A DNA stretch of 64,000 nucleotides from an uncultured delta proteobacterium (GCA_963804955.1 CAWDSQ010000007.1:32001-96000), one strand, 5' to 3'; positions 10,150-47,622 are shown, counted from the stretch's first letter. Notes: generated from the sequence alone by a model not told the origin. Numbers and translations: made by a program.

Positions 10150-12585
10150 AGCTTTTTGCTTGCGCGAAACCGGCTTTCTCCGTTTTTTCTTTCCCGCAGG
10201 CCGGGGCTCTGCAACCAGCGCAGCTTTGATCGCCTCATCAATACGGTCAACAAAAACAAATGTCATATCAGCTTTAACCGCATCGGGCGTTTCATCGAGA
10301 TCTTTTTTATTAAGCCGCGGCAGAATAACGGTAGTGATGCCGGCCCGCTTGGCAGCAAGAACCTTCTCCTTCAGTCCGCCTATCGGGAGAACCTTGCCAC
10401 GCAGCGTGATCTCGCCGGTCATGGCAATATCGGAGCGAATAAGTTTCCCTGTAAGCATTGAGGTGAGCGCACAGGCCATGGGAATGCCCGCGGAAGGGCC
10501 GTCCTTGGAAATTGCCCCTTCGGGAATGTGCAGATGAATGTCCAGCTTTTTGTAAAAATCTGTAGGTATGCCCAGCTCCCGTGCGTTTGAACGTACATAG
10601 CTCAAAGCCGCCTGAGCAGACTCCTTCATAACATCCCCCAGCTGGCCCGTTATGATAAGACCTTTAGCGCCGTCCATCTTTGTGGCTTCGACAAAAAGAA
10701 TATCTCCGCCCGATGGCGTCCAGGCAAGACCGGTAGCGATTCCGGGCATAGTTATGCGCTCTGCGATATCTGAAAAATATTTTTGCTGCCCCAGGAACTC
10801 CGGCACATCAGTTTTTCCGATATCCATGTGCGTAAGCGAGCCATCTGCAACCTTTCGTGCCACGCCGCGAAAAATTGCTGCAATCTCCCGCTCGAGATTG
10901 CGCACCCCGGCCTCACGTGTGTACTCCTGTATAACCAGCCGAATGGCATCATCTGAAATGGTTAAAGCATCTTCTGTAAGGCCGTGTTCCGCGAGCTGGC
11001 GCTGCACAAGAAATGTCCGCGCGATATGCAGTTTTTCAAGCTCGGTGTAACCGGGAAGCTCCAGCACTTCAAGCCGGTCGCGAAGAGCTGCGGGTATGAC
11101 ATCGATGACATTTGCCGTCGTTATGAAAAAAACATTTGAAAGATCAAAAGGGACCTCAAGATAATGATCTGAAAATGCATGATTCTGTTCCGGATCCAGC
11201 ACTTCCAGCAGTGCTGAGGACGGGTCCCCCCTGAAATCCATGCCCAGCTTGTCTATTTCGTCAAGCATGAAGACAGGATTACTGGAACCTGCTTTTTTCA
11301 TATTCTGAATGATACGCCCCGGCAGCGCCCCGACATAGGTACGACGATGGCCGCGGATTTCAGCCTCATCGCGCACCCCGCCAAGTGAGATGCGAATAAA
11401 CGTCCGGCCAAGCGCCCGGGCTATCGAACGTCCGAGTGATGTTTTGCCAACTCCCGGGGGGCCATAAAAACAAAGTATCGGACCCTTCATATCATTTTTA
11501 AGCTTGCGCACAGCCACATACTCCACAATGCGCTTCTTGATCTTTTCAAGATCATAATGGTCCTCATGGAGAACTTTTTCAACGCTGAGGATGTCAAGAT
11601 TGTCCTCAGTGGCCGTATCCCATGGCATGTCAGTAAGCCAGTCAATATAGGTTCTTGATACGGAATATTCGGCTGCCGCAGGCGACATCATGGCAAGCCG
11701 TTCAACCTCCTTGATCGCTGCCTTTTCAGCCTCTGCCGAAAGGCGGGCTTCTTTGATTCTGGCCCTCAGCCCATCAATTTCAACCTGCTGATCATCCTTA
11801 TCACCGAGTTCAGCCTGTATCTTTTTCAGCTGCTCGCGCAGAAGGTGCTCACGCTGACGCTGGCCGAACTCCTCAGCTATCTCGGACTGGATCTTGTTGC
11901 TCAAGTCCATCTTTTGAATCTCGGTTTGAATGATGCCGAGAGCTTTTCGAAACCGCTCCCGAATCTGGCGTTCTTCCAGCACCTCCTGCTGCTTCTGAAC
12001 GTCGGATGAGGAGTTGGCAACGGAAAAATCAATAATGCGTGAATAGTCATTAAGATTAGCGGCGATAATTTTAAGCTGATCAGAAAGCTGCGGCGATGCA
12101 TCCACAAGGCGGGCAAATTGATTTCGAAGCGTATCAAGCATCGCGTCCAATTCATCGCTCCGCATAATCTCATCTTCCAGAATCCGAACCTCAGCCATAA
12201 TATAGGGCTGTTTCTGGATAAAAGTATCTATCTGCATGCGGGCAACACCCTGACAGATAAAGCTCACTTCTCCCTCTCCGGTATTCATAAGCTTTATGAT
12301 ACGCGCTGCTGTTCCAATCATGCATAAATCAGATGTATCGGGTGTATCGACCTGCTGATTCCGTATCAAGGTAAGCCCCAGAAAACGGTCACGCACCGCC
12401 GCCTCGTTGATCATGCGTGCATAACTGGCGTTTTTGACTGAAATAGGCCCTATGGCATGCGGAAAAACAACAAAGTTGGTCAAAGGCAAAATTGGCAGTT
12501 GCGAAGGGATATGCGATTTTTCAGAATCTACGGCCTGCGGCGCATCAGAGGACACATCGACGGATACATCTTTTTCTTCTTCCAT
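10144..12585 (-). CDS. lon: ATP-dependent Lon protease
   Basis: Lon N-domain LPILPL, Walker A GPPGVGKTS, LDEIDK, catalytic KDGPSAG and KEK. Confidence 0.97.
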   Translation of the reverse strand: MEEEKDVSVDVSSDAPQAVDSEKSHIPSQLPILPLTNFVVFPHAIGPISVKNASYARMINEAAVRDRFLGLTLIRNQQVDTPDTSDLCMIGTAARIIKLMNTGEGEVSFICQGVARMQIDTFIQKQPYIMAEVRILEDEIMRSDELDAMLDTLRNQFARLVDASPQLSDQLKIIAANLNDYSRIIDFSVANSSSDVQKQQEVLEERQIRERFRKALGIIQTEIQKMDLSNKIQSEIAEEFGQRQREHLLREQLKKIQAELGDKDDQQVEIDGLRARIKEARLSAEAEKAAIKEVERLAMMSPAAAEYSVSRTYIDWLTDMPWDTATEDNLDILSVEKVLHEDHYDLEKIKKRIVEYVAVRKLKNDMKGPILCFYGPPGVGKTSLGRSIARALGRTFIRISLGGVRDEAEIRGHRRTYVGALPGRIIQNMKKAGSSNPVFMLDEIDKLGMDFRGDPSSALLEVLDPEQNHAFSDHYLEVPFDLSNVFFITTANVIDVIPAALRDRLEVLELPGYTELEKLHIARTFLVQRQLAEHGLTEDALTISDDAIRLVIQEYTREAGVRNLEREIAAIFRGVARKVADGSLTHMDIGKTDVPEFLGQQKYFSDIAERITMPGIATGLAWTPSGGDILFVEATKMDGAKGLIITGQLGDVMKESAQAALSYVRSNARELGIPTDFYKKLDIHLHIPEGAISKDGPSAGIPMACALTSMLTGKLIRSDIAMTGEITLRGKVLPIGGLKEKVLAAKRAGITTVILPRLNKKDLDETPDAVKADMTFVFVDRIDEAIKAALVAEPRPAGKKKRRKPVSRKQKAS

Positions 12586-12641
12586 GGATATCTCCTTATA
12601 CTAAGACTATATCCAGCCTCAAGCTGATTTCATCTGCGCTT

Positions 12642-13061
12642 TTATTCAACTAAAATTAAACGGCGGTCACACCTGAACAAGCGCAGATAAAGAAAGCCGT
12701 TTTCATACCGTGCCTCTATGCTGTTCTCGTCGATATCAGCCGGTATTCGAAAACGCTTCTGGAAGTGCCCGAAGTCTATCTCAAGCCTGTGGACCGATTG
12801 CTTACCGGGGATATCGGGCTCCCGGCGAGTGCCTGAAACCGATAGGAGCTTGCCCTCAACAACAATAGACACTTCATCCCGCGTGATGCCTGCAATGTCC
12901 AGTATGATAACCATGCCGTCATTTACTTCGTAGATATCTGTATCGGGCGCCCACATGTCTTTGGCATAACAACGCATGGAAGGCTGCGGATAATCAATAT
13001 CATCGTCCGGATGGAGCGTAAATGCTCCCATCTTGAACCAGTTGCACCTTGCTGAACTCAT
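12642..13061 (-). CDS. Hsp20/alpha-crystallin small heat shock protein
   Basis: WAPDTDIYE, EIDFGHFQKRFRIP, ARYENGFL. Confidence 0.9.
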   Translation of the reverse strand: MSSARCNWFKMGAFTLHPDDDIDYPQPSMRCYAKDMWAPDTDIYEVNDGMVIILDIAGITRDEVSIVVEGKLLSVSGTRREPDIPGKQSVHRLEIDFGHFQKRFRIPADIDENSIEARYENGFLYLRLFRCDRRLILVE

Positions 13062-13157
13062 ACTCTCCTCCCCAAACAAGATGTCTATCTGACCGCCCTG
13101 CACATGGCGTCTATGTTATAGCACTGTATACGCATATTTTACAGAATTGCAATTCAT

Positions 13158-13191
13158 AAAAAAGCGCCCGCGGATAAAACCCGCGGGCGCT
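13158..13191 (-). terminator. Rho-independent terminator after the PPIase gene
   Basis: AGCGCCCGCGG stem followed by a T6 tail on the minus strand. Confidence 0.8.
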
Positions 13192-13216
13192 GATCTGGTG
13201 CTTTAAAAAAGCATTC

Positions 13217-14323
13217 TCAATTTTTACCATATACTATGGTTGCCTGCTTGGTTAAACCATCAATATAGTCCTTAATGGCCTTCTGTTTGTTTTGCTCCTG
13301 AAGGCTCTTGATGATGTCAGGCTTCACTTCATCGAGAGTTTTTGTCTTTGCCTGCATATGCTCCAGCGTCTGAATGATATGATAGCCGAACTGGGTTTCG
13401 ACCACAGGACCTATCGCATCGACCTTCTGGCCGAATGCGGCATCCTCAAAAGGTTTCACCATTTGCCCCTTCGAAAACGTACCGAGATCGCCGCCCTTGG
13501 CTTTGCTGGGACAATCGGAACTTTCCTGCGCTAACTTAGCGAAATCTCCGCCTGCTAGAAGCTTCTTGCGGATGTCATCAATCTTAGCCTTCTTTGGCTT
13601 TTTCACCGTTTCGTTATCTGTGGCATTTGTCTTCACAAGAATATGGCGTGCGTGAACCTTTTCCGGCTCATCAAATTTCGCCTTATTGACATCAAAATAA
13701 TTCTTAATTTCTTCATCTGCGGGTGTGGGGCCAGCCGTAATCTGCGAATCCATCAGCTTCTTGGCCTTGAGGATATTCTTGATATCGGACTTCAGTTTGT
13801 CAATGCTGACACCCTGCTGCTTGAGAACATCCTCAAGTTTCGTGCCTGGGGGAATCTGCTGCTCATACTCCTTTAGCTGCGCATTTACTTCATCGTCCGT
13901 GACTATAATCTTCTTCTTGTCGGCTTCCTGCGCAAGCACGGTCTTCTGGATAAAATAATCTGAAAGCTGCTGGCGCCATTTGCCCTTCATCTGCTCAAGC
14001 TGTGCCTTTACCTGCTCCATCTGCTCGGGGGGTACCTGCTTTGAGATAGAGGCCATCTGGCCATCAAGCATTGCATCCACTTCAGCGGTGGTCAATTTTT
14101 CGTCATTAACTTTAACGATAAAATCATCCTTGCCGTCTGAGGCAGGTTTGGCATCAGCTTTTGGAGCCGGTACTTTAGGAACTTCGGCCTTGGGTTTTTC
14201 AACCTTTTGTTCTGCCGGCTTCTTGTCATTCTCTGAGGCCGAACACGCAACAAGGTTCATAGCAAAAACCATGGCAACAGCAAGTGCGAAAATGGGCATA
14301 CATACTGCTGGATACTTTTTCAT
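13217..14323 (-). CDS. Parvulin-type peptidyl-prolyl isomerase (PrsA/SurA-like lipoprotein)
   Basis: LVAC lipobox, VHARHILVK, SDCPSKAKGGDLG, MVKPFE, TQFGYHII. Confidence 0.93.
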   Translation of the reverse strand: MKKYPAVCMPIFALAVAMVFAMNLVACSASENDKKPAEQKVEKPKAEVPKVPAPKADAKPASDGKDDFIVKVNDEKLTTAEVDAMLDGQMASISKQVPPEQMEQVKAQLEQMKGKWRQQLSDYFIQKTVLAQEADKKKIIVTDDEVNAQLKEYEQQIPPGTKLEDVLKQQGVSIDKLKSDIKNILKAKKLMDSQITAGPTPADEEIKNYFDVNKAKFDEPEKVHARHILVKTNATDNETVKKPKKAKIDDIRKKLLAGGDFAKLAQESSDCPSKAKGGDLGTFSKGQMVKPFEDAAFGQKVDAIGPVVETQFGYHIIQTLEHMQAKTKTLDEVKPDIIKSLQEQNKQKAIKDYIDGLTKQATIVYGKN

Positions 14324-14676
14324 CAATACTCCTTTCAAAAACATTCACCTTTTACCCTCTTTTTATTTGAATAACTTCGCATATCTGAACATTTGGCGAG
14401 TTATCAAATGAGAGAGAGGCACCGTAATAAATTTGTACTATATCGGCTTGGGGGGCTGAGTGTCAATATAAAATAATCAGTTAAAAAGACAAAATCATGC
14501 ATTTGGAGCTAATAAGCTGACGTTGCGTTTATTTATTATTCTGGGACCAAAACCAGTACAGCACCCGTAACGGCAATCCGGGCATCGTGGAACTCAACAC
14601 GAACGATCTCAGTACCATAAGCGGCACTACTTGTATTCGCAAACAACCTTCAATTGAAACGCACGAGCCTCACCAG

Positions 14677-14717
14677 AAAATAAGCCCCCGTGACAAACAT
14701 CGTCAGAGGGCTTATTT
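14677..14717 (-). terminator. Probable terminator at the end of the reductase/chelatase block
   Basis: AAATAAGCCC...GGGCTTATTT inverted repeat. Confidence 0.6.
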
Positions 14718-14739
14718 GATTTCTTGATAGCTTAAAACT

Positions 14740-15968
14740 TACTTCTTTACCGGCATGCTTCCAGTTGCTCAAGCACTCAGCTGATCATCATTCCATGCAC
14801 CCAGGTGCACTACGGGAATTGAAGAAGGCACTCCTGACCGGTCCACCATGGAACGGAATTTCATGCTCGCTGTGAATGCTCTCCGCGCTTATGTTGACGG
14901 CGAAACCAGTATCTTTTTGACGCCGCCGGCAAGTAGCCCCTGCACAGCGGCTGTATGTCCGGCTGCTTGAATTCCATATAGGCAAGAGCGATATGAGCTC
15001 TTTTAAAGCCTTCGGCCGCAAGCAGCTTTTTTGTTTCCAGCCGGAATGAGTTCTCCTGCTCGGGCTGTGTTTTAAATAAGGCGTCCCAGGATGCGGGCTG
15101 GCCATGGGCACCAGCAGAATGCCGATATCGGATTTGTCCATATCCACTGAGGCCCTGAGTGCGCGCTCGACGTTCATGCGCATCAGCCGCTGGAGTTTTT
15201 AGCGTATCCGTGAACGCACAGCTTCACGCCGTGTTTTTCAGGCTGCAGAGCTCGATCTCTTTCGGCCCATAGCGGAGTGATCCGAATCGGTAAGCCAGAC
15301 ATTGCGAAGTACACGCCGGTCAAGCCCCCTCATGTAAGGCGCGGGCTGCCGCGACATCGGCATGCTGGGCGTCGTTCGGAAGCGGCGATATGCACACGGG
15401 AATTGAGGATCGCACTTTTTCCGGTATAAAGCCTCGATCCGCTCCATGGATGCGTATTTCATGCGGTTATGAAAGCTCTCGGCGCTTAAATTGACCGGAT
15501 TCAACCAGGACTTTCTTGAAAAAAAACGGCCTGAAGGGCCAGGCACAAACGGCACGCCGGTTTCATCCGATTTCATGTCGGATGGCATGATTTCCATGCC
15601 GGCAAAAGCGCCATCGTACGTCTCTAAGGCTCGCCGTGGGTAAAACAGATGATGGCTGTATGCCCAGGCGATGTTGAGCGCACCGGCGCGGGCTGTTTTT
15701 CAAATACCGGCGTCCCAGGTACACGGGCAGGCGATAAGCTACCAGCGAATGCCGCACATCAGCAGAGCCCGAGTCCATAGTCACCTGCGGACCTTGATTG
15801 CAAGCTCGCACGATCATGCGCATCAGACGTCAGGAATTTTTGAGCGTATCGGAAACGCACAGCCGGCACGCCATATTGTTCAGGCTGCAATGCCTCGATA
15901 TCGTACTGCGAGACCCCTGCGACAAGGGAATAAACGCTGCAATCATACCGTATACAAAACCCCGACAT
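14740..15968 (-). CDS. Ferrochelatase-family (class II chelatase-like) protein, heavily frameshifted; start uncertain
   Basis: Manual frame-joining gives GHTAIICFTHGEP-ETY (~15665-15615), MKYASM, GILLV-HGQPASWDALFKTQPEQENSFR (~15125-15040), NISAESIHSEHEIP and LGAWNDD, in the order expected for ferrochelatase-like proteins. Confidence 0.65.
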
Positions 15969-16047
15969 TTAAAAGAATAAGGCGGTCAGTCGCCGTCCTG
16001 TACGGCGACTAAAGCGCCGCTCCTCCGTTAACATTCATAAATCGGTA

Positions 16048-16069
16048 GGGGCTCAAAATTTTGAGCCCC
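16048..16069. repeat. Perfect palindrome, GTAG-headed (REP-like)
   Basis: gta-GGGGCTCAAAATTTTGAGCCCC; a second hairpin AGTCGCCGT/ACGGCGACT lies at 15988-16010. Confidence 0.6.
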
Positions 16070-16082
16070 GGCATTGGAACCG

Positions 16083-16762
16083 TTACAATTTTATAAGAAA
16101 CTGCTCCGGCCTCTTGGACCGCGGCGCGCGCAACGACTTCAAAGGTGCGGTTCTTCATGGCCGGGTTCTCCAGGGCATCAACGCACACGCGGGCAATCTG
16201 CTCGCGCTTCACGCGGCCCGTGATCTTGCCGCCCTCGCCGAAGGCGACTTCATCAGGACTTTTACCTTCGTGTACCCGCCGGGCCGTATGATCGTGTAAT
16301 CGATCCCGCAGGACTGAATGAATGCCTCGCTCTTGTCCCTTGTGACTCAGCACGCTCATCATTGGCCATCTATACATGGGCGATACGGCATCGCGGCTGT
16401 TGCCAACCCCGACGGATGAAATGACAACGATCTGCTTGAGGCCCTTTGCCTTGGCGGCCCGCGCAAGGTTCTGGTTACCCATATTGTCGATCTTGTCGTT
16501 TTCCGACCCCTGAAGGGCTTTTTGGAGCCGATGGCGCTTATCATGTAGTGCGCGCCTTCCATGGCCTTCTCAAGAACGGCACAGAGGTAAGATCCCCTCA
16601 GCGCACGGTCTACACCCGTGAGGCCGCAGGTTGGAGCCGAGTCAAACGGCGGCACCATGAGGGCCCGCACCTTGTAGCCCCGCTTCAAAAGCTCCTGCAC
16701 CACCAGCCTGGCCTGTCCCTGCCGTGGCGCCTGCAACCACTACTGTTTTTTCACCGAGCCAT
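16083..16762 (-). CDS. Atypical SDR / NAD(P)H-binding protein, frameshifted
   Basis: Joined frames: KTVVVAGAT..G..RLVVQELLKRGYKVRAL, ISAIGS, DNMGNQNLARAAK..G..QIVVISSVG, REQIARVCV..NRTFEV; GGAGG RBS. Confidence 0.85.
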
Positions 16763-16858
16763 ACTTGCCTCCTTGCAATATATTTTGTGGATAGCGCTTC
16801 GCAGGCCCAACCGACATCCAAGAAAAAACCAATAAAACTAAAGGACCGATATGCATTT

Positions 16859-18586
16859 TTACATCCCAACTCTTTTCTGAACTCCTCCACCGTCGCGCCA
16901 ATGACAGTTATCCCGTGATTTGCCGCGGGCATAATCCTCGGTGCCGGAAACTGCGGCCTGACGGAAGGGCGACGGCACAAGCTCGAGCATGCCCTTTGCC
17001 TCGTCATCCCACGGCATGGTGAAGGTGAGGCTTGAGATCGGCACTTCTTCATCTTCTTCTGCGGCCGGGGGAGGTACTGCGTCATCGCCAAAGACAGCCG
17101 AAAACTTGGCCTTGAACTTGGTTGGCGTAAACTTATCGGATACTTCCCGAAAGATTGTTACCGTCACATTAGTGCCCCGCTCTTTGGCGATCTGCTCGGC
17201 AACGGAATGCAGCTTTTTTAGGGCTGTAGCACGCACGAAGTGCGGTATCATCTCGCCAACCTTTATCATGGCCTGCTCTGCCGCGATGTCCCAGGGCACT
17301 GAGCCCGTGGAGATGGAGCCCATCATATCGCCCTTGGTCTCAAGGAATATGCCCATATAGACCTCGTTCACCAGGCCCTCAACAAGGTACTTGGCGCCCA
17401 TAAAGCCCATAAACGGGCAGTTCTCCGAGCTCAAATACCCGATGGTGGGAATATCCGAGAAAATAAAATTTTTGAACCCCTCATCCATGCTCACTTTCTT
17501 ATCATAGAAGTTGCCATAGATTACCATGGGGCCTTTTTCAACGAACTTGTCGCGCTTCTCCTCAATGGTGGGGCATATGAGCACATCATCGCACAGGGCC
17601 TCGAGGCGCTTTGCCGCATCGTGGTTGCTCACCGCAGTCATGACGATGCCAACGCCCACCTCTTTATTCAAAAACTCGCTGATGCCCACGGCATAGGTGT
17701 TGGCATTTTCAAGTGACAATGCCGCGGTCATTTCAAAGGTGACGGCAAAGACCATATTTGACGAAATGAACTCGAAGGCATTGGCCATCGTTTCTTTCAG
17801 ATACGGCGTCGCATCGATCTTGAAAAAACCGGCGACGCTCTCAAGCCATGCCGCAGAATTCCCGAACCCGATGGGGATAATGTCCGCCATATATGGAATG
17901 CCGAAGCGTTTCTCCATTTCCTGAGCCACCCGCACACCGCTGTCATAGGGGTAGATGCAGAGATTGAGCTCTGCCTGCGCAGCATTTTTAATCTGGCCGA
18001 TGGTTGCGCCTGCAGTGTAGACGCAGTTGACGGTGACGCCGATGCCGGCGAGCATCCGCGTCAGCTCATACACGTCGGCGCGCCAGTTGAAGGTCGAAAA
18101 CGTTGGGCCGATGATGTTGACCGACCGGGGGACTTTTTTGACCGCCGGGTCGACAAGATCAAGAATGCGGATAAAGGCAGTCTCCTTGCCCTCCACAAGC
18201 GAACCGCCGATGGGCGGGTGGATAATGACAGTGTCTTTAAAGCCAACCTTCTTCACAATGCCTTCCACATCGTCGCGCGTCACCTCGACAGTGGGAGCGG
18301 TCACGATTAAAATTGCGCCGGGCTTTTTTGCCGCGATCTTCTCGAGCGTGGTCTCCATGCGGTCTTCGGCGCCCTGCATGATGTTGGCATACGAGAGGTT
18401 GGTCGAATACAGCTCGCAGGACCAGTCATTGACCAGGGCATTCACATGCTGGTTTATGTAGCAGCCCGGGGGCGAATGAAAGATGGTGTCCGCGCCCTTG
18501 ATGCCCAGGCAGGTCCAGAGAGCACCCTCAAAAGCCGAGGGAGTGTGCAGCTCCTGCATTTTGAAATCTTTTTGTGTCTCATTCAT
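16859..18586 (-). CDS. Nitrogenase component-1-like subunit (BchZ/BchB-like) with two C-terminal PCP_red domains
   Basis: HSPPGC, STNL, RSVNIIGP, AQAELN, PIG, PFMGFMGA; C-terminal PWD..A...P.FVR and PWDDEA..L..VP..FR repeats; indels near the 3' end. Confidence 0.85.
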   Translation of the reverse strand: MNETQKDFKMQELHTPSAFEGALWTCLGIKGADTIFHSPPGCYINQHVNALVNDWSCELYSTNLSYANIMQGAEDRMETTLEKIAAKKPGAILIVTAPTVEVTRDDVEGIVKKVGFKDTVIIHPPIGGSLVEGKETAFIRILDLVDPAVKKVPRSVNIIGPTFSTFNWRADVYELTRMLAGIGVTVNCVYTAGATIGQIKNAAQAELNLCIYPYDSGVRVAQEMEKRFGIPYMADIIPIGFGNSAAWLESVAGFFKIDATPYLKETMANAFEFISSNMVFAVTFEMTAALSLENANTYAVGISEFLNKEVGVGIVMTAVSNHDAAKRLEALCDDVLICPTIEEKRDKFVEKGPMVIYGNFYDKKVSMDEGFKNFIFSDIPTIGYLSSENCPFMGFMGAKYLVEGLVNEVYMGIFLETKGDMMGSISTGSVPWDIAAEQAMIKVGEMIPHFVRATALKKLHSVAEQIAKERGTNVTVTIFREVSDKFTPTKFKAKFSAVFGDDAVPPPAAEEDEEVPISSLTFTMPWDDEAKGMLELVPSPFRQAAVSGTEDYARGKSRDNCHWRDGGGVQKRVGM

Positions 18587-18587
18587 G

Positions 18588-19824
18588 TCAGCCTCCATAT
18601 TTCCGCACAAGGCCCTGCCAGGTTTCATAGACGGGCTTGTGCATGTTTTTGAAGAAATTAGTGCCAAGATCGATTGCATAATCGTAGCCGTACTCACACA
18701 GGTACAGCATGTTGATGAACGTGGGCACGAGGCGCGACACGCACTCGGGCTGTGCTTGAAATTCAACCGACACGGCCGTGGGCTTAATCCTGTCGATTAC
18801 GTCGCCGATCAGGTCGAAATCCTCCTCGATAAAGGTAACGCCGTAGCGCTCCTGCATGAGCTTTTTTTCCTGCTGGTAAAATTTATTCTTCATGGACGGC
18901 ACCACAAAAACCTCGGCGCCGAACTCGGCAAAAATCTTGCCGACTGACACTTCGTTTGCCGGTCCTGCCACCATGAGCATGCGGACCTTCTCTTTGGCAA
19001 AACGCTCCCGGATTTTCTCAAGCTCCGGCTTCACGCGCTTTTCCTCTTCATCCACAAGGTCATGCAGCTTTTGATTGTTCATCCTGTCGGCAATAGCGCG
19101 CAGGAAGTTTGACGTGCCCTGAATGCCCGTGGGAATCTCGATAAACTCAACCTCGCCGCCGAAGTTTTCATTCAGGTGCTTGCAGGTAAGCCAGGGTGTT
19201 ATGTGAATGGGATAAGTATTTTTCCGCGCAGACGATCTTAGCCATGCTGTCGATATGGGGCGTGGGAAAGACGAAGTACGGGATATCGGCCTTTTTGAAA
19301 AACATCTCAAGAGAGGCAAGATTGCCCGCGTCCTGGCCCGTGCGGCCGACAATGCCGATAGAGCCGGGCACCTTCTCCTGTTTCTCAAACGTGTCGAGCA
19401 CCGCAACCCAGGCGGCATCAGAGCCCAGGGGCATGGAGCGCGGATAGTTGAAACCGGTAAGGCAGGTGCTCACTTTCAGCTCCGGGATTTCCTTTTTGAG
19501 CTCTATGATAACGCCTTCAATATCCTCGCCGATAAGCTGGGGAATGCAGGTATTGATGATGACGATGACTTTAGGGTGATATTTGTTATAAAGGTTCTTG
19601 ACCTGCAGCTTTAGGCCTGCCTCGCCGCCGAAAATGACGTCGCTTTTGTTGACAAGCGTACCGGCAGTCACAAGCTGCGCCGGTCGGCATGACATGGAGC
19701 CCACCTGGTTCTGGTACGAGCAGGGCTGGGGCCCGTGCAGAAGCGGTATGACGCCTTCGATTTTGCCCAGGCTTGCCAGGGCCTGAATCGTGGAGCAGCA
19801 GTGTTCATAGTGTTTCAGGGGCAT
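18588..19824 (-). CDS. Nitrogenase component-1-like subunit (BchY/BchN/NifD-like), one frameshift near 19220
   Basis: HCCS, LHGPQPC, DVIFGGE, NTCIPQLIGEDI; the ORFs 19168-19824 and 18588-19418 join at an A-run; AGGAGG RBS; abuts the next gene's ATG. Confidence 0.88.
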
Positions 19825-19995
19825 AGGGACCTCCTAATGTAAATTCCTGATTTTGGATTGCCGTATTTTGCATCCCGCAGATGTATTCCTTTTTTTAGCG
19901 AAATCCGCAGCCCACCCTGCATGTTGTCGACCGATTTCAACCAGTGAAGAGCTTCGGCTAATCAAATAATTTTTATTCTGCGTCCTGCACTTGCT

Positions 19996-20848
19996 TCAGT
20001 GCTTCCTTCCCGCAGCCTGGGCCCACCAGGCATGGCAGCTCTTCAAAAGTGAACGACGCGGGCACGGAAAGTTCCTTGTTGTTCCAGATCGACTCTGACA
20101 ACTGCCGAAACGCCTCGCACTCGGCTGTATCTGGCGCATGCTGGAAGAGTGTCAGGCCCTTGCCGGAGCACTCTTTTATCTTTTCGCTGTAGGGAATAAA
20201 TCCGACAAGATGGCTGCCAAGCTTTCGGGAAAATTCATCCAGAATGGTCTGCTCATCCTTAAGCTCCCGGCCATTGCCGATAATGCCGCCGAGCCTGACG
20301 CCCGAACGGGAATTGAAGCGCGATACAGCCTTGCAAATATTGGAGGCGGCAAATAAAACCTCCAGCTCGCCGCTGCTCACGATATAGACCTCGTCGGCAT
20401 GGCCTTCGCGAATAGGCATGGAGAAACCGCCGCACACCACGTCACCGAGCACGTCATAGAGAACCACATCGAGCTTCAGAACCTCCATCACATTGAGATG
20501 CTTGAGCGCCTCTATGGCCTCCACCACCCCCTTGCCCCCGCAGCCAAGCCCGGGGTCAGGCCCGCCGCTTTCCGCACAGAAAATCTTGCCGGAGCAGGTA
20601 TCGTTGAGAGGGCTTTCAAACACCACCTCGTCCATGGTGAGGGATTTCACCTCAAAGTTCTTCTTCCGCAGAATCCCCAGCACTGTCTGGGGCATTTTGC
20701 CTTTCAGCAGCAGACGCGTGCTGTCATGCTTGGGGTCGCAGCCCACATGCAGAACCCTTAATCCTTTGGCCGCAAGGGCAAAAGTTATATGGGATGACAC
20801 CATGGACTTGCCGATACCTCCCTTACCGTAAATAGCTATCTGGCGCAT
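19996..20848 (-). CDS. Nitrogenase iron protein-like ATPase (NifH/BchL/BchX family), copy 2
   Basis: YGKGGIGKS, GCDPKHDS, ESGGPDPGLGCGGKG, DVLGDVVCGGF; an indel near the 3' end makes the likely true terminus ...AWWAQAAGRKH*. Confidence 0.93.
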
Positions 20849-21052
20849 AGTGAGACCTCTGTGATATTTGTTGTGGCGAATTTCTTAATTATTCGTTCAG
20901 AAAATTTTGTTGGGTTCGCCCTGTTACAGCAGTTTTTTCACCATCACCTGATTTTTTGCCGGTGGGATTGAGTAACAGAGGCAACATTTTTGTCCGGGCT
21001 TAACCCAACCATCTAGAATGCTAAAAAGGTTGTCGGCATTCACGCCTGCCAG

Positions 21053-21892
21053 CTAATTTATATACGGCAGCCACCAGTCATAGAGCTCTTCAAACTCAAG
21101 GGTATTCGGAATGACAAGATTTTTATTGTCAAACACCTTCTGCCCGATCTCGCGGTAGAGATTCGCCTCCGGCGAATCCGGCGCGCATTGAAACACGGTT
21201 TCGCCATCGCCGCCGCATTGCTTCACGGTCTGGCTGTAGGGAATGACGCCCACGATCTGCGTGCCGATCTTTTGAGCAAAATCAGTCACCATCTGAAGTT
21301 CATTCTTCACGCGTCGCAGGTTAACGATGAGCCCGCCGAGCTTTGAGCCGGCCCGAGCGTCAAAGCGCTTGATTGCCTTTGACACATTGCTGACTTGATA
21401 GAGCGCCTCGAACTCGCCGCTGGTCACCACATAGGTTTCCTGCGCAAAGCCCTGGCGTATGGGCAGGGAAAAACCGCCGCAGACGACATCGCCCAGGATG
21501 TCATAAATAACGACATCGATATCAAGGGCCTTGAATATACTGAGTTTTTTTATCGTGTCGATGGCTTCAACCACGCCCTTGCCGCCGCAGCCCACCCCCG
21601 GCTCGGGCCCGCCGCTTTCAGCGCAGTAGATTTTGCCGCCGTTTTCAAACTGCAGGGGCGATGTGGTGATGATGTCCTCGGGAGAAAGGTCGTCGTACAT
21701 GAAATCATTTTTGCGCAGCACGTCAAGAATCGTGGGCGGAAAGTCAGGCAGCAGAAGGTAGGTGCTGTCATTTTTCGGGCTGCAGCCCATCTGCAGCACC
21801 TTCATTCCCCGCTCGGCAAAAGTGTAGGATAGATGGGATGCAACCGTCGACTTCCCTATGCCGCCTTTACCGTAAAGTGCTATCTGCCGCAT
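21053..21892 (-). CDS. Nitrogenase iron protein-like ATPase (NifH/BchL/BchX family), copy 1
   Basis: YGKGGIGKST, GCSPKNDS, ESGGPEPGVGCGGKG, DILGDVVCGGF; AAGGAGG RBS. Confidence 0.93.
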   Translation of the reverse strand: MRQIALYGKGGIGKSTVASHLSYTFAERGMKVLQMGCSPKNDSTYLLLPDFPPTILDVLRKNDFMYDDLSPEDIITTSPLQFENGGKIYCAESGGPEPGVGCGGKGVVEAIDTIKKLSIFKALDIDVVIYDILGDVVCGGFSLPIRQGFAQETYVVTSGEFEALYQVSNVSKAIKRFDARAGSKLGGLIVNLRRVKNELQMVTDFAQKIGTQIVGVIPYSQTVKQCGGDGETVFQCAPDSPEANLYREIGQKVFDNKNLVIPNTLEFEELYDWWLPYIN

Positions 21893-21910
21893 TGACTTCC
21901 TCCTTAATCC

Positions 21911-22384
21911 TTATAATGGACAGCGACATCGTTTCATAATTGAGCTTGCGGCGCGCAGCGATTTCAGCAGGCGCGTACGCTGCTTTTCGTCAAGACAACC
22001 AAAAATATTCATCAGCTCCTGCTTACGCGCCTTTAAAATACTGCCGTGAGCTTTTTTCCCGCTGTCTGTCATCTGCACTTTAACGACCCGCCGGTCACCC
22101 GTGTCGCGAATGCGCTCGACAAAACCCTCGTCAACGAGCCTGTCGACGACCTCTGTCATGCAGGGCATTTTCACATTGGCGATTTTGCACAGCTCGCCCA
22201 TGCTGTAGCGCCGGTCTTCATGAAAGGCCGACATAGCCTTGAGCTGCGAGCTGTTGACCGGGAACCCCATCAGCCCCTTGCTGCTCATAACCATTTGCTG
22301 AAAAAGGTCCGTAAAAAGATTACGGATCTCGATTAAATGCATTTCTATTTCGGTAAGCTCACTGAGTTGCTTGCTGTCCCCCAC
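21911..22384 (-). CDS. MarR family transcriptional regulator
   Basis: MTEVVDRLVDEGFVERIRDTGDRRVVKVQMTDSG wing motif. Confidence 0.92.
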   Translation of the reverse strand: MGDSKQLSELTEIEMHLIEIRNLFTDLFQQMVMSSKGLMGFPVNSSQLKAMSAFHEDRRYSMGELCKIANVKMPCMTEVVDRLVDEGFVERIRDTGDRRVVKVQMTDSGKKAHGSILKARKQELMNIFGCLDEKQRTRLLKSLRAASSIMKRCRCPL

Positions 22385-22747
22385 GTTACCCCATCCTTTT
22401 GCAAAGATGATCTGACCACAGACTGCTGCGACAGATCAAAATTTCAGTAAAAAATATTTCATTAAAAAAAAGTTCAATTATGAAGTATATAGACTGTGAA
22501 TTAATTTTTGTCAAGCCAGGATTTTTTATTTTTTTGGACTTTGAAATATCCCTGTTGTGCGGCAGAGAGTGTCATGCTGATTGCATATCTGCATCCGCCA
22601 ATAAAAAAACAGGCTTTTCCCAACAACATTGTTGCGGTCTGGCCTGTTTTCTCTGTGCGAGGAGACTGTACGCGTCATGGTCGATGCCCCGCCGCGAACC
22701 GGATATGGAGGGGAATCAAGCAGCATGCAGCATCACGTATATGGCGG

Positions 22748-23218
22748 CTAGGGCTTGGTTGTCTTCTTTAATATGCCCGAAACTTTTCGCAAGGCCGTGA
22801 GCAGTTCATCCTGATCCTTCTGTGAAAGTTTGCCAAAAAGATTGCCCATTTCCTCACGGCGGCGGCCTATGAACTTGTCGTGAATCTTTTTGCCCGCATC
22901 CGTCAGCGCCACTTTGACCACGCGGCGGTCCTTGGTGTCGCGCACCCGCTTGAGCAAGCCCTCGGACTCGAGCCGATCTACCATCTCGGTCATGCTGGGC
23001 ATCTTCACCAAAGCGTTCCTGCTCAGCTCCGTCATACTGTACTCGCGGTCTTCGTGAAATGCGGTAAGCGCCTTCATCTGCGAAAGCGTTACGGACATAT
23101 CGCTTATACGGCGGCTGCCCTTGACCATTTTGTTGAATATCTGCACGAAAAGGTTGCGCACCTCTATCATGTGTTCTTCAATCTCAGTGACTTTTTCCAT
23201 AAAAACCTTATTATCCAT
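22748..23218 (-). CDS. MarR family transcriptional regulator (paralog)
   Basis: MTEMVDRLESEGLLKRVRDTKDRRVVKVALTDAG. Confidence 0.92.
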   Translation of the reverse strand: MDNKVFMEKVTEIEEHMIEVRNLFVQIFNKMVKGSRRISDMSVTLSQMKALTAFHEDREYSMTELSRNALVKMPSMTEMVDRLESEGLLKRVRDTKDRRVVKVALTDAGKKIHDKFIGRRREEMGNLFGKLSQKDQDELLTALRKVSGILKKTTKP

Positions 23219-23257
23219 ATGCGGCCTCATTTTAGAATTTTTAATATTTCATTTCCT

Positions 23258-23286
23258 AATATATAAATGGCATATTTTTATGTCAA
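23258..23286 (-). promoter_or_regulatory. sigma70-type promoter upstream of the marR paralog
   Basis: TTGACA-17 bp-TATATT; a similar TTGACA-17-TATATA lies at 22486-22514 upstream of the other marR. Confidence 0.6.
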
Positions 23287-23630
23287 GCGTTATTTTATAT
23301 TTTCAAAGAAATTTTGATAAATGCAAATACTTTTGAAACCATTTTGCATATGAGCTATATAGCTAAACTGACCGCTGCTGCAATATATCTAACGACGAGG
23401 GCGTCTGAGCTTTTTTTCAATTTAATACAGTGGTTTAAACATTCATGTCTGGGACTTTTTGTGCAATCAGTCCTCTCGACGGTTCTTGGAATACTGGAGT
23501 TTGTTTAAAATTTCTTTAAGCAAGACGGGTTTTCAGAGCACAAACAGTTTAGCGGCTGCGGTTACATGTTATGAAACAGGCGCATACACTGTCTCTACTC
23601 AAAACTTAAAACAACACTGCATCGAAAAGC

Positions 23631-25289
23631 ATGAAAATAATCTACGCATCCGATATTCACGAGTCTTATAAAAATCTGCAGAAACTCTTTCGTGTGACGG
23701 ATGCCGACCTCTACATAATTGCAGGCGACCTCCTCTATAGCGCCTTCCCTTCCTGGGAACTTGCCGCACGCTTCACGGAGATGCAGCAGCGCGTCTATTC
23801 CTGGGGCTTAAGCCGGGGCATGACGGGCACACGCTTTACTATGGCCCGCACCATGCTTGAAACGCCGGAATCTTCTTCAATTGAACAGGCGCTTGCAAAG
23901 GAATTTCTTCGCCTCACAGAAATTGCACAGGCAAGCATGTTTCAAAAATACGGACGCATAGCAAAAATTTTTACCGCATCCGGCAAGACCGATATCATAA
24001 CCATCCCTGGAAACTATGATATGGATCTTAACAAAACCGAACTTGCATCATGGAACCTGCATCTGAAAACACGCATACTAAACGGCATTACCATCGCCGG
24101 CTATGGCGGATCACCGGTCTTCACCCCCGGCATACCGGACAATCTGCGCATAGCATACAATGAGCTCAGGCTGGATGGACTGCTCGTGTCTGAGCCGTAC
24201 GACTTTTTCATAAAAACCAACCCCGACATTATCCTGCTGCACCAGCCTGCCTATGGTTATCTGGATACAATTGCCACCTACGGCAGCATCGGCAGTATCG
24301 GCGTGCGCGATTTTATCGACCACAGCAGTGTACGCCTCGTGCTCAGCGGCCATATGCATGAAGACTGGGGTGCGATCTTCAAGCAGGGCAAAGTCTTCCT
24401 GAACCCTTCAAATTTCGGCCGCGTCGTTGAAATTCACCGGATTAAAAAAGGCGGCTACTTTACTGAATTTACCATGGACGGCGCTACTTTCAGGGGGGGG
24501 ATGCTGCGCCAGATCGACGGCGGCAGGGCATACGATATTGAGCAGTGCATTATGCGCGACGACAAATTCCGGCTGCTGGTGATCGACCTCAAGCGATACC
24601 GCTATCTCTCAAACATAAAAAAACGCCAGAAGCATATCCGCGCCATCCGCCTCTTCAATACGCTGCGGGGGTTCTTTCAGAAACATGAAACCGAGGCAAC
24701 CCGCACGCGCATAGAAGCACTGGAAAAATTCTGCCGGAAACTGCATAAAGAAGGCCATGACATAGCATTCCACCTGCTTGGCTCTCTTAATTTCGGCATG
24801 GCGACCGACACATCGGATCTTGACACCGTGCTCTACTTCCGCGACCCGGAGCTTACCGTGCCCGATGATGTCTCCTACCCTGTGCCCGACTACGTTCACT
24901 CACGTTTGGGAGAGCTGAAAGACAGCGGCATTGATCTTTCCATCTGCGATTGTTTGAATCTTGCCCGCATCGAGGAGGCGATCATCACGCAGGATGTGCA
25001 CAACACGCTTCTGCAGCGTTTTATTTTTTATTACGGGACCTGCCGCTGCGTGAATGCAGAGCCCATCAAGGAGGTTGAAAACCTGCTCATCCACAAGCAG
25101 CCGTTCCGCTTTGATGTGGAAGGGGAGCTTGCCGATGTCTTCCGCATGATGATCAGCAGCTTTCGCCACTCCTTCTCATTTAAAAAATACCAGATGCGCC
25201 TGCGTGAAAAAGGCCTGACCGTGCCGCCCTACATTGAAGAAAAAATCTGGGAGTATCTTGAGTATCGGGATGAAAAGCAGAAAAAATAA
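23631..25289 (+). CDS. Metallophosphoesterase fused to a C-terminal nucleotidyltransferase-like domain
   Basis: SDIH, AGDL, GNYD, HQP, GHMH; C-terminal LLGSLNFGMATDTSDLD (GS...DxD). Confidence 0.85.
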   Translation: MKIIYASDIHESYKNLQKLFRVTDADLYIIAGDLLYSAFPSWELAARFTEMQQRVYSWGLSRGMTGTRFTMARTMLETPESSSIEQALAKEFLRLTEIAQASMFQKYGRIAKIFTASGKTDIITIPGNYDMDLNKTELASWNLHLKTRILNGITIAGYGGSPVFTPGIPDNLRIAYNELRLDGLLVSEPYDFFIKTNPDIILLHQPAYGYLDTIATYGSIGSIGVRDFIDHSSVRLVLSGHMHEDWGAIFKQGKVFLNPSNFGRVVEIHRIKKGGYFTEFTMDGATFRGGMLRQIDGGRAYDIEQCIMRDDKFRLLVIDLKRYRYLSNIKKRQKHIRAIRLFNTLRGFFQKHETEATRTRIEALEKFCRKLHKEGHDIAFHLLGSLNFGMATDTSDLDTVLYFRDPELTVPDDVSYPVPDYVHSRLGELKDSGIDLSICDCLNLARIEEAIITQDVHNTLLQRFIFYYGTCRCVNAEPIKEVENLLIHKQPFRFDVEGELADVFRMMISSFRHSFSFKKYQMRLREKGLTVPPYIEEKIWEYLEYRDEKQKK

Positions 25290-25340
25290 AGCCTCTTACC
25301 AGAAGCTGGGCAAACATTTTTCTTGTACGTAGTCTTCCAT

Positions 25341-25898
25341 CTATTTTTCATCTCTTTTCCATATAACATTGCGCAAACCTTCGCGGTAGCACAGGCGTCG
25401 GATTTTATAGGGAAGTATGGTGACAATATTGAAATTGTATGATTCCGCAGCCTCTCCGAGGCCCTGCGCTTCAAGCTGTTTCAAATACCGTGAGTATGCG
25501 CGAATTTCATGAAAACGGGTTATATCTTCATTTTTTTTAAAAACATTGGCGATGCCCCAGACCTGCAATCCTGAGGCCCCGAAAAAATCAACACCGGGGT
25601 TGTAGGGGTCGGCGATGCTGTAGGATACTCTTTCGTTTGCATGCATGTTGGCTATTTTGCCCCCACCCTCGCAGAACATATGCACGGTAAGGCCGTTATT
25701 GAAATACTCCACGGGCGTGCACCGGGGTTCATTATTTTTGCAGGTTGCCAGGTGGAGCACGTTGTGGCTGCTGATATAGGTGATGGCCATTTCGATAAAC
25801 TCTTCTTCCGTCATGGCCGCGCGCATTTTGATTCCGGCCATTTCAAAGGCCTGCAGCTCTTTGGCGTTTGGTTGCGGTACGATCACTTTTCCCATCAC
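25341..25898 (-). CDS. Pyridoxamine 5'-phosphate oxidase-family (split-barrel flavin-binding) protein
   Basis: VLHLATCKNNEPRCTPVEY, GGKIANM..NERVS, GLQVWG. Confidence 0.82.
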   Translation of the reverse strand: MMGKVIVPQPNAKELQAFEMAGIKMRAAMTEEEFIEMAITYISSHNVLHLATCKNNEPRCTPVEYFNNGLTVHMFCEGGGKIANMHANERVSYSIADPYNPGVDFFGASGLQVWGIANVFKKNEDITRFHEIRAYSRYLKQLEAQGLGEAAESYNFNIVTILPYKIRRLCYREGLRNVIWKRDEK

Positions 25899-25922
25899 AG
25901 CATTCTCCTGTTGAGGCCCTGA

Positions 25923-26793
25923 TTATTCGTGGTGGTGTGCATAGACTGTTTTATCCAGATTTTTCACAAGGCCCGGAATCAGGCTGAACGGGAAGCATAC
26001 CAGAAGCTCATCATCCTTCAAGCGCATGAATGTTCTCCCGCCGTGGTCGCCTGCGGTGAAGGCAGGCCGGTTATTGGCAAGGGTTGAGGGAATGGTCATG
26101 AGGCAGGTTGATTTGCCCGCAAAGCCGGTGATAATCTCGCCGGTATCAAAAGCAAATGCAGTCGAGATGGCGGCCAACTGCGCAGGCGTAGCCGGAAAAA
26201 GCACGAGTTCTGGCCTGGTCTATCTCTTCAAAAGCACCGATGACCATACCCTTAAAAATATGGCTGAAGCGGGAAAATGCATCCCTGTTTTTTGTCATCG
26301 GCTCTCGCGAGGCATACAGGTTCCCTTCGCCAACGACGGATGCTTCAAGAGCCGCATCAAACTCCTCGCGCGTGACGCGTTTGGCGCCGAGGCCCATGTT
26401 TGCGCATCCTCCGCACATGCTCGCTTCAGCGGAAAAAAACAGCGGTGCCCCCTGGCCCTCGAATATGTCGCCGCATATGGCGCACCAGAACTGCGGGCCT
26501 TCCTCAACCGGAACATTAGAGGGCGCTTTGTCAAAAAATTTCATAGCCGCAATAGCTCGTGAAAGGCCGAGTTTATTCTTAAGGCAGAAAGCAAGTCTTT
26601 TCACATCGAGCATGGCATCTATAGCGCCCCTGCCAATGGCTCCGACAGGGCAATAGCGCACGCAGACCCCGCAGTCGCAGCACATGTCGGTGACGGCAAC
26701 TGTATCTTCCCGGCGGACGATGGCACGGTTAGGGCAGTTGCCGATGCAGGATCCGCACCGGGCGCAGAGTTCATCATTGATAGTAAACGGCAT
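25923..26793 (-). CDS. 2x[4Fe-4S] ferredoxin fused to a DUF169-like domain (frameshift near 26210)
   Basis: CARCGSCIGNCP and CCDCGVCVRYCP, then FWC, CGGC...LG, ATPAQL, KSTC, GDHGGR, LKDDELLVCFP. Confidence 0.8.
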
Positions 26794-45672: not shown

Positions 45673-46160
45673 TGCACATCCCTAATAAACCGGAAATCAA
45701 CTACACACTACATCATACTGTCGATTTGATACGTCAAATTAAATAAATGCTGTCTTTGATTTTACCTAGCATATTCTGCTTCCATGCAACTGTGCCCGTA
45801 TTAGCCAAGTTACCCTGATAAAGCATTTCAGATATGTACTAACTCTAATTCCATCTTATTATATTTCCTTCCTGTATCAATGTCAAATATTTCAAAAAAC
45901 TATTTTTTACAAATAATGAAATATACGTTACATGAAATCACCCACTCAAAAAAAAATCGTGCATGTGCCCCTAAAAAATAATATATATTAAAAAAACTGA
46001 AATTCTGTTGATCCACACAATAAAAGTTAATACGTGAGCAAAAAGTCATCTTAACTTAAAAAAAGGCCGTCGCTCAATAATCCAGCAAATCAAGGGTGCA
46101 GCTAATTCAAAAACCGGGATTTTCGTTCTCACATTAGTGGGTTTTCACATTTAATTTTAG

Positions 46161-46236
46161 CACCCTCTCCCCAAACCCCTCGAAGAGAGGGAGACCTGTT
46201 TTTCCACCATCCCTTGATGGGAGGGATGAAGGGGAG
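46161..46236. repeat. Degenerate CCCTCTCCC/GGGAGAGGG-type intergenic palindromic element
   Basis: caccctctccccaaacccctcgaagagagggag...catcccttgatgggagggatg; a GC-rich island in an AT-rich spacer. Confidence 0.45.
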
Positions 46237-46297
46237 TTCGCCTAACTAGATAAATTTAAAGTCATAGCCCAATAGTTATATATAAAAAGTGAATAAC

Positions 46298-47565: not shown

Positions 47566-47622
47566 TAAGCTATGTGAGGGTAATATTAAAAAAACACGCT
47601 TCATTTACAAGAGGAGCATTAT

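Follow-up and report, generated by a model that had tools for sequence, protein, structure and literature searches.

Which reaction could a nitrogenase-like (NFL) reductase with two different Fe proteins carry out in a bacterium whose genome yields no nif, bch or cfb genes? This question is raised by a locus of an uncultured delta proteobacterium, which we analysed within a window of 64,000 nucleotides (GCA_963804955.1 CAWDSQ010000007.1:32001-96000). Between positions 14781 and 23230 on the minus strand of this window, eight co-oriented gene-like units are bounded by a promoter-like site and a terminator-like hairpin, and comprise two MarR-family regulator genes (MarR1 and MarR2), two genes for NifH-like Fe proteins (H1 and H2), two genes for component-1 subunits (A and B), a gene for an atypical short-chain dehydrogenase/reductase (SDR) and a CbiX/ferrochelatase-like gene. 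We read this locus, with a probability of roughly 0.6, as a MarR-controlled operon for an uncharacterised NFL reductase of the type of dark-operative protochlorophyllide oxidoreductase (DPOR) and chlorophyllide a oxidoreductase (COR). All eight units, which a preliminary description of this DNA had placed here, were located by comparison of open reading frames (ORFs), Pfam families and orthologs, and are listed below in the order of transcription (aa, amino acids).

23258..23286, minus strand: promoter-like -35/-10 site upstream of MarR1 (sigma-70-like TTGACA-17-TATATT, 11/12)
22748..23230, minus strand: MarR1, MarR-family regulator, 160 aa, intact (PF01047 44 bits, cut-off 24.6)
21911..22384, minus strand: MarR2, second MarR regulator, 157 aa, last few residues altered (PF01047 41 bits)
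21053..21892, minus strand: H1, NifH-like Fe protein 1, 279 aa, intact (Fer4_NifH, PF00142, 290 bits, cut-off 25)
19973..20848, minus strand: H2, NifH-like Fe protein 2, 291 aa as read, altered C-terminus (Fer4_NifH 305 bits, cut-off 25)
18591..19824, minus strand: A, component-1 subunit, NifE/BchN-like, frameshifted (Oxidored_nitro by Pfam)
16859..18586, minus strand: B, component-1 subunit, BchZ/BchB-like, two C-terminal PCP_red-type repeats (Oxidored_nitro 196 bits, PCP_red 35 bits)
about 16009..16775, minus strand: atypical SDR, NAD_binding_10 / NmrA-type, frame-broken (PF13460 31.6 bits against a cut-off of 27.2, C-terminal piece)
15683..16006, minus strand: diverged partial copy of the chelatase-like gene, residues ~201-297 (blastn 72% to 6871-7159 of the same-genus relative G003; tblastn; repeats D1 and D3)
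14781..15674, minus strand: remnant of the CbiX/ferrochelatase-like gene, equivalent to residues ~95-403, many frames (DNA ~79% identical to the intact gene of G003)
14678..14717, minus strand: terminator-like hairpin after the last gene (17-bp stem, then UUAUUUU, minimum-energy fold)

The promoter call is a consensus match only, in a region that holds 11 such sites against 8.3 expected. The closing hairpin, with its 17-bp stem and short U-rich stretch, lies where it had been described, and is absent from the list of a simple terminator scan.

Architecture and family affiliation of the reductase

H1 and H2 share 51-55% identity, and the P-loop (GKGGIGKS), the switch regions and the two cluster cysteines do not vary among the 14 aligned sequences. 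They would be paralogous NifH-type ATPases, each with the motifs for a subunit-bridging [4Fe-4S] cluster, and these motifs suggest that they pass low-potential electrons to the A/B core at the cost of ATP. The ratio of nonsynonymous to synonymous substitution (dN/dS) is 0.05 for H1 and lies within 0.04-0.05 for H1, H2, A and B alike.

The catalytic core can be compared with known systems residue by residue. In A, five cysteines (C9, C10, C35, C46 and C93) are invariant among orthologs, and C10, C35 and C93 align to the three cluster cysteines of NifE/NifD. In B, Cys42 aligns at the site of the BchB ligand Asp36, while Pro98 occupies the site of BchB Cys95, at which B has no cysteine; a BchZ representative that passes the NCBIfam cut-off (P0134) shows the same cysteine in place of Asp36 and the same lack of a cysteine at the Cys95 site. 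A contributes three cysteines and B a single one to the four-cysteine 3+1 pattern of COR, and we therefore expect the core to hold a single inter-subunit [4Fe-4S] cluster, as predicted from the BchYZ pattern. It appears to have neither a P-cluster nor a FeMo-co site. Of the two C-terminal repeats of B, the first is recognised as PCP_red by Pfam and the second cross-matches PF08369 proteins of the host's own genome; these helical repeats would be of the kind that closes the pigment pocket in BchB and BchZ.

Every NCBIfam score of the four proteins falls far below the curated cut-off:

H1 against nifH: 300.5 (cut-off 394)
H1 and H2 against CfbC: 297 and 295 (cut-off 402)
H1 and H2 against BchL: 208-218 (cut-off 345)
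H1 and H2 against BchX: 176-183 (cut-off 331)
B against BchB: 150 (cut-off 490)
B against BchZ: 115 (cut-off 529)
A against nifE: 70 (cut-off 505)
A against BchN: 57.5 (cut-off 420)
A against BchY: 18.7 (cut-off 425)
Component-1 subunits against nifD: 36-42 (cut-off 654); against nifK: 49 (cut-off 427)
Component-1 against the CfbD model: 43 (cut-off 268)

A search of B against 1.84 billion representatives returned 1148 matches at E<=0.001 and 15 at E<=1e-30, most of these 15 being fragments; the nearest full-length representatives are 66, 42 and 37% identical, and the rest 30% or less. Among 50 representatives scanned, only two qualify as BchB and a single one as BchZ, the others being unnamed NFL proteins. 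In a FastTree phylogeny of 125 sequences (11 B orthologs and those of the best 150 representatives that reach at least 380 aa, shorter ones being excluded), the B clade and its three nearest representatives form one group with a support of 100. This group is sister to BchZ plus three unnamed proteins and adjoins BchB, in a tree built without reference NifK, CfbD, MarK, IsrK or Group VI sequences and with a support of 90 that is not robust. The proposal of a nitrogenase-fold two-component reductase outside the characterised families is borne out by both the sub-threshold scores and the separate clade of B. The description of A and B as a BchY/BchZ-like pair holds in part: B shows the BchZ ligand pattern, and the best scores of A are to NifE and BchN. 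Nor do the Fe proteins stand nearest to BchX or BchL; their closest relatives are MarH and NifH, the best solved relative of H1 being MarH (9fmg_D, PDB 9FMG; 244 bits), with NifH at ~225 and BchL at 153-160 bits. Since the Fe proteins are nearest to MarH/NifH while B is of the BchZ type, the system has the appearance of a mosaic, in which a Group IV/NifH-type reductase component is joined to a Group V-type catalytic subunit.

The arrangement is well conserved. The order MarR-H1-H2-A-B is kept in 10/10 loci first fetched, each with its MarR gene upstream, and both H genes are kept in all 16 orthologous loci that reach far enough upstream, two more being cut by contig ends; this bears out the two distinct Fe proteins of the preliminary description. 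The MarR pair is confined to the host's own genus, other relatives having a single MarR gene. MarR1 is 96-98% identical to its same-genus orthologs (dN/dS 0.06), and neither regulator reaches an NCBIfam equivalog (e.g., BilQ, 36-37 against a cut-off of 125). Three loci of a sister clade (L057, L050 and L056, in G017:C8, G018:C3 and G020:C434) show a tandem arrangement of A-B, a divergent gene, MarR and A-B. No NifH-like gene was found in the stretches examined at these tandem loci, and an H1-H2-A-B operon lies elsewhere in the same genomes; Fe proteins may therefore be shared between A-B cores.

Of 300 other genomes sampled evenly across the phylum, five have a close match, all of them in the host's own family or its sister family; among 40 nearer relatives, matches occur in 4/6 families, some of them to the PCP_red part only. 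Literature searches on uncharacterised nitrogenase-like enzymes returned no description of the clade, although supplementary trees might hold members. A 2026 review (North and Shafaat, PMC13474568) distinguishes Groups IV-A to IV-F, V and VI and names uncharacterised NFL systems as the main open challenge; in its accessible text, no NFL member with two Fe proteins, MarR control or an origin in Desulfobacterota was found.

State of the operon copy

As assembled, only MarR1 and H1 match their relatives along their whole length. The eight-gene operon as first described is confirmed in part: its gene set is present, and the frame breaks of this copy had gone unseen. Insertions and deletions (indels) were scored against a close relative (L021, B 93% identical) and, for subunit A, against G003 as well. 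A 1-nt insertion at 21931 changes the C-terminus of MarR2, and another at 20036 changes the last ~20 residues of H2; the latter is missing from a 98%-alike contig of another run (X2). In A, an extra C at 19216 splits the gene, so that Oxidored_nitro positions 1-198 are read in one frame and 208-343 in another; its orthologs have 411 aa and a single frame in 11/14 genomes. In B, +1 at 16909 together with -1 at 16864 rewrites the last ~15 residues. Subunit A of G003 has its own, different 1-nt insertion (L011:10199), 57 nt downstream of the break in the window, and in another close relative an IS110-family transposase gene (L034:4734-5675) lies between MarR and H1, the A and B genes of this relative also being split.

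The two genes after B are more heavily affected. The SDR shows at least four frame changes, and its intact 228-aa ortholog in G006 (NAD_binding_10, 132 bits) matches two frames by tblastn. Its Rossmann motif, GEKTVVVAGATAGTGQ, sits in a third ORF, apart from the C-terminal PF13460 piece, and 1-nt indels separate the window from related contigs at 16268, 16505, 16711, 16716 and 16723. Its solved relatives, ChuY (E 3e-6) and BLVRB (E 6e-4), are distant only. The chelatase-like region (14781-16006) has no open frame, and its three ORF pieces match no Pfam family; its identity is recognisable solely against the intact 403-aa ortholog of the same genus (G003, L011:6551-7762), which scores 41 bits to CbiX (cut-off 22) and 37 bits to Ferrochelatase (cut-off 27). 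Relative to this gene, the remnant contains many 1-nt gaps (dN 0.189, dN/dS 0.186), and its N-terminal membrane part is replaced by the diverged partial copy at 15683-16006, which is 65-72% alike. In G003, no SDR lies between B and the chelatase-like gene.

Other accounts of the broken frames were set aside. The stops in all frames and the internal repeat at 14788-16000 might have marked a structured RNA or tandem element; Rfam returned no match at E<=0.1 across 12000-26000, and the intact G003 ortholog explains the repeat, which consists of the partial copy and of the two halves, homologous to each other, of a chelatase-like gene. A different genetic code was dropped, since the breaks are frame changes rather than in-frame stops and the neighbouring genes read normally. 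The overlaps 31854-33611/31103-32011 and 35465-37171/36988-38076, considered as further frameshifts, are separate complete genes.

Do these breaks belong to the organism or to the assembly? We lean towards recent decay of the operon in this population. The breaks are concentrated at the operon: five fall in the 5.3 kb from MarR2 to B (Poisson p 1.3e-5) and many more in the 2 kb after B, against one in 18.4 kb of long conserved genes elsewhere (rpoB, rpoC, dnaE and two carB, all but rpoB in one frame), and no split gene was noticed across the window's remaining ~50 kb. The gradient from the chelatase-like gene, worst affected, through the SDR to the least affected core fits progressive decay. 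Moreover, the swapped N-terminus of the chelatase-like gene and its dN, three times that of its neighbours, are not changes that base-calling errors yield.

That the breaks are local assembly errors, and that the organism carries an intact, working operon, is the less favoured explanation and still a serious one. The dN/dS of the four core genes is as low as given above, every one of the five core indels is a single base, and two further few-contig relatives have split A or B genes too, at other positions. Two observations count against decay. The essential rpoB gene (G000:C30:222099-226147) is split between two frames near 225000-225060, which places one indel error or more of this assembly in an essential gene, and the interval of this break contains AAAAAGTACTTA, similar to the AAAAATACTTA that lies where the frame of subunit A breaks. 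In other public runs, contigs that are 90-100% alike also lack the extra base at ~16906 and 20036, two of the five core indel sites; they show 1-nt indel differences at eight places in the SDR and chelatase parts. None of these contigs spans the operon, no run has more than 0.27 of the sampled words, and parts of the operon outside their cover carry no information; one contig joint (15169->15810) could be either a single-copy variant or an alignment split. Because rpoB is frameshifted in the same assembly, decay and local assembly error cannot be told apart. In either case the window copy, frame-broken or mis-assembled, is of lower value for study than intact orthologs (e.g., L012, L015 and L019).

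Relative to G003, synonymous divergence (dS) is 0.88-1.09 in H1, H2, B and the chelatase part and 0.36-0.53 in the flanking genes and the MarR genes; this ~2-fold difference hints at allele replacement by recombination.

Substrate of the reductase

The substrate is probably a (metallo)tetrapyrrole, as chelatase-like, bilin-reductase-like, hemB-hemL and metal transporter genes recur around the clade and its sister clade. Downstream counts refer to 14 orthologous loci with at least 1.5 kb after B. A chelatase-like gene follows B in two (the window and G003), and an NAD_binding_10 SDR likewise in two (the window and G006; the end of the L021 contig shows the first 35 residues of one). A gene for a ferredoxin-dependent bilin reductase (FDBR) family member, Fe_bilin_red, lies inside the operon in 1/14 loci (G006, 54 bits), and DUF1302-DUF1329 genes, with or without BNR and MMPL, follow B in 4/14. 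Two of the 14 have a gene for a 355-aa protein with alpha/beta hydrolases, followed in one by a reductase of the old yellow enzyme (OYE) type; among the 14 loci, it is in G018 that an OYE/Pyr_redox_2 reductase and alpha/beta hydrolases follow B. ESM Atlas look-ups of the 355-aa protein and of a 202-aa neighbour gave scores all below 0.9. On the upstream side, hemB and a class-III aminotransferase gene (hemL-like) directly adjoin the operon in G009, and a sulfite/nitrite reductase-like gene lies there in G014.

The sister clade (B 49-55% identical, eight loci) extends this picture. Chelatase-like genes follow the A-B pair in 3/8 loci, with copies scoring 65-79 bits; in G023, two full-length chelatase-like genes stand in tandem, each reaching both Pfam cut-offs, and FeoB and an FDBR-like gene come after them. 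Three loci have FDBR-like genes at a distance of up to 7 kb (two over the Pfam cut-off, one by BLAST only), one has a P-type ATPase gene, and 2/8 have B12-radical-SAM genes. The link to tetrapyrroles was originally drawn from the chelatase neighbour and the PCP_red domains. Conservation of the SDR or the chelatase does not carry it, each being found in 2/14 loci and both being broken in the window; the link is nevertheless strengthened by the FDBR gene in the G006 operon, hemB-hemL in G009 and the chelatases in 3/8 sister loci. The condition named beforehand as refuting the link, namely that related operons never keep the SDR or the chelatase, does not hold for the chelatase, which three separate lineages share; the SDR occurs rarely.

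The described absence of nif, bch and cfb genes is confirmed for the window and extends to the host genome. At 87% completeness, this genome contains PF00148 and PF00142 matches over the cut-off at the operon locus only, and no match to CobN/Mg-chelatase (PF02514), to the nifB family, to haem oxygenase or to Photo_RC (PF00124), type I reaction centres not having been searched for. It contains eight Fe_bilin_red (FDBR) genes over the Pfam cut-off, at the following places in the genome (G000):

C22:17101-17853, FDBR gene
C7:128977-129672, FDBR gene
C32:76082-76861, FDBR gene
C14:218657-219364, FDBR gene
C5:99314-100042, FDBR gene
C20:76598-77587, FDBR gene
C30:325783-326535, FDBR gene
C7:387833-388570, FDBR gene

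FDBR-like genes number 5-19 per genome in 31/41 relatives, and one whole family has none (0/8). The accessible parts of the papers on pre-PcyA make no mention of nitrogenase. One cluster of the host (L045, G000:C14:212000-223100) reads MMPL, DUF1302, DUF1329, BNR/Ycf48-like, a 607-aa protein, FDBR-like, a 151-aa protein, PNPOx-like, a 286-aa PCP_red-ended protein and a transporter of the major facilitator superfamily (MFS). In this cluster, the DUF1302-DUF1329 uptake module, which elsewhere stands after B, is tied to proteins of the bilin-reductase-like and PCP_red kinds. Four further places (G000:C24:90535-92157, C24:34257-35168, C5:69326-70195 and C7:306643-307164) hold PCP_red domains that are not part of a reductase subunit, one fused to the C-terminus of an MFS transporter and one to a DUF169 protein, the others being N-terminal in small Cys-rich proteins. 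Within the window, the part from 44000 to 59000 has a GC content of 0.36-0.42 against ~0.50 elsewhere and may be an island.

What kind of tetrapyrrole, and to what end? We favour, as a tentative choice, a haem- or chlorophyll-derived molecule that would be taken up or salvaged and then reduced by the A/B core, with variable helpers that may include CbiX/ferrochelatase-like (de)chelatases, bilin-reductase-like proteins, the NmrA-type SDR, metal transporters and outer-membrane uptake proteins. A more specific and rather doubtful extension would make the family the entry enzyme of an oxygen-independent route of tetrapyrrole breakdown or remodelling in sediment Desulfobacterota: an imported macrocycle derived from haem or chlorophyll would first be reduced in a COR-like reaction driven by ATP, CbiX/ferrochelatase-like proteins would then remove the metal, FeoB or a P-type ATPase would handle it, and the expanded FDBR-like family would act on the products without haem oxygenase. 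In such a route, H1 and H2 might form a heterodimer, or each might drive one of two successive reductions; to our knowledge, neither is known for any nitrogenase-like enzyme.

Several points weigh against a tetrapyrrole reductase of this kind. The SDR and the chelatase are not conserved, unrelated or uncharacterised genes follow B in 5/14 loci, and with FDBR-like genes so common, some of their adjacency is expected by chance, at an estimated ~1/26 loci against the four seen (G006, G009:C8, G023 and G030, in or near the operon). The accessible literature connects DUF1302, DUF1329, BNR and RND (resistance-nodulation-division) genes with hydrophobic compounds, fatty esters among them, and not with pigments. 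The OYE-type reductase, hydrolase and MarR neighbours would suit aromatic or lipid substrates equally well, and the Fe proteins look more like MarH and NifH than like BchL, MarH coming from a sulfur-compound reductase. Induction through MarR we infer from the MarR genes alone, and all functional steps proposed here are deduced from sequence.

These same observations could point to other substrates or other ends. An NFL reductase for a hydrophobic or aromatic molecule that is not a tetrapyrrole, acting for example by ATP-driven reduction or dearomatisation in the anaerobic breakdown of an imported lipid-soluble compound, would suit the MarR regulators upstream in all ten loci, the DUF1302-DUF1329(-BNR-MMPL) module after B, which in the accessible part of the Pseudomonas work is tied to growth on fatty esters, the hydrolases and OYE/Pyr_redox_2 reductase of G018, 3-hydroxyacyl-CoA (coenzyme A) dehydrogenase genes upstream in two loci, and the kinship of H1 to MarH, part of a C-S bond reductase. 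In literature listings, the DUF1302-DUF1329 module is also tied to monoterpene and hydrocarbon metabolism. We regard this explanation as rather improbable, as B has the BchZ ligand pattern and PCP_red repeats, chelatase-like genes occur in three separate lineages, FDBR-like, hemB-hemL, FeoB and P-type ATPase genes recur, and the operons examined showed no genes for a CoA ligase or for sulfur metabolism.

The operon might instead make a new reduced metallo-tetrapyrrole cofactor or pigment, with no imported molecule, by the logic of coenzyme F430, in which a small CbiX-type chelatase works with CfbCD. The CbiX-type chelatase-like gene beside NFL genes mirrors cfbA with cfbCD (the G003 protein scores 42.8 bits to F430_CfbA, cut-off 120), G009 has hemB and the hemL-like gene immediately upstream, a metal could be supplied by FeoB or a P-type ATPase beside chelatase-like or FDBR-like genes, and B12-radical-SAM genes accompany 2/8 sister-clade pairs; Group VI NFL systems are likewise proposed as cofactor makers in the accessible text of PMC13474568. 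A biosynthetic role of this kind nevertheless seems unlikely, if a little less so than a non-tetrapyrrole substrate. The system is patchy among close relatives, the ortholog being missing in at least four same-family genomes that are 93-100% complete, and the copy in the window may be in decay. An accessory function, induced by its substrate, would agree with MarR control and with the outer-membrane uptake modules, and no counterparts of the cfbB/cfbE amidase or ligase were seen. Reduction of a salvaged haem- or chlorophyll-derived molecule stays the preferred, if tentative, proposal; if the family does reduce a tetrapyrrole, it could also lead to the question of how remains of haem and chlorophyll are processed in the absence of oxygen.

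Comparison with known systems

The system differs from nitrogenase proper (Nif/Vnf/Anf) in its cluster cysteines, with three in A and one in B instead of six P-cluster cysteines. The methylthio-alkane reductase MarBHDK (Group IV-C) resembles it in the Fe protein, H1 aligning to MarH over its full length with all motifs; however, the set of six P-cluster cysteines is missing from A and B, the genome yielded no NifB/MarB homologue, and against B the MarD and MarK chains reach only 39-78 bits. CfbCD with CfbA, of coenzyme F430 synthesis (Group IV-B), offers the likeness of an NFL reductase beside a CbiX-type chelatase, and H1 and H2 score 295-297 bits to CfbC. In contrast, CfbD is a single subunit whereas all operon loci here encode two different component-1 subunits, the hosts are bacteria without a methanogenesis context, and the chelatase-like protein, unlike CfbA, has a two-domain form of 325-403 aa, with an N-terminal membrane segment in G003.

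Group VI NFL proteins of Elusimicrobia, as far as the accessible text describes them, have a NifH that falls beside Group V and many radical SAM neighbours (Meheust et al. 2020, 10.1101/765248). Compared by this description, without Group VI reference sequences in our tree, they share with the operon their occurrence in non-phototrophs, the lack of NifB and of FeMo-co ligands, at most four cluster cysteines and a tetrapyrrole role proposed from context. The operon's Fe proteins, however, score much nearer to NifH/MarH (225-244 bits for H1) than to BchL (153-160), Group VI NifH itself being ~40% identical to NifH, and the orthologous operons do not include radical SAM genes, a single 214-aa fragment lying upstream in 1/18 loci; in the sister clade, such neighbours are seen in 2/8 loci.

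The closest likenesses are with Group V. DPOR (BchL/ChlL, BchN/ChlN and BchB/ChlB) provides the best matches of B (BchB 150 bits; 2xdq_B 105 bits by profile), an identical order of domains and a cluster between the subunits to which the N-type subunit gives three cysteines. It differs in that the Asp36 ligand of BchB is a cysteine in B and the equivalent of Cys95 is missing, and true BchB representatives rank below more than 60 unnamed NFL proteins in the B search. COR (BchX, BchY and BchZ) is likewise a two-component ATP-driven reductase, and B shares with it a C-terminal PCP_red domain and the BchZ-type cysteine at the Asp36 site, with three cysteines from the partner subunit. Compared to COR, the operon has two Fe proteins of the NifH/MarH type, a second PCP_red repeat in B, MarR control and a host in which, at 87% completeness, neither bch genes nor a reaction centre were found. 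In this family, Fe proteins of the NifH/MarH type are combined with a catalytic subunit of the BchZ type, and its hosts are non-phototrophs; if tetrapyrrole reduction proves true, it would represent a third type of pigment-ring reductase besides DPOR/COR and CfbCD.

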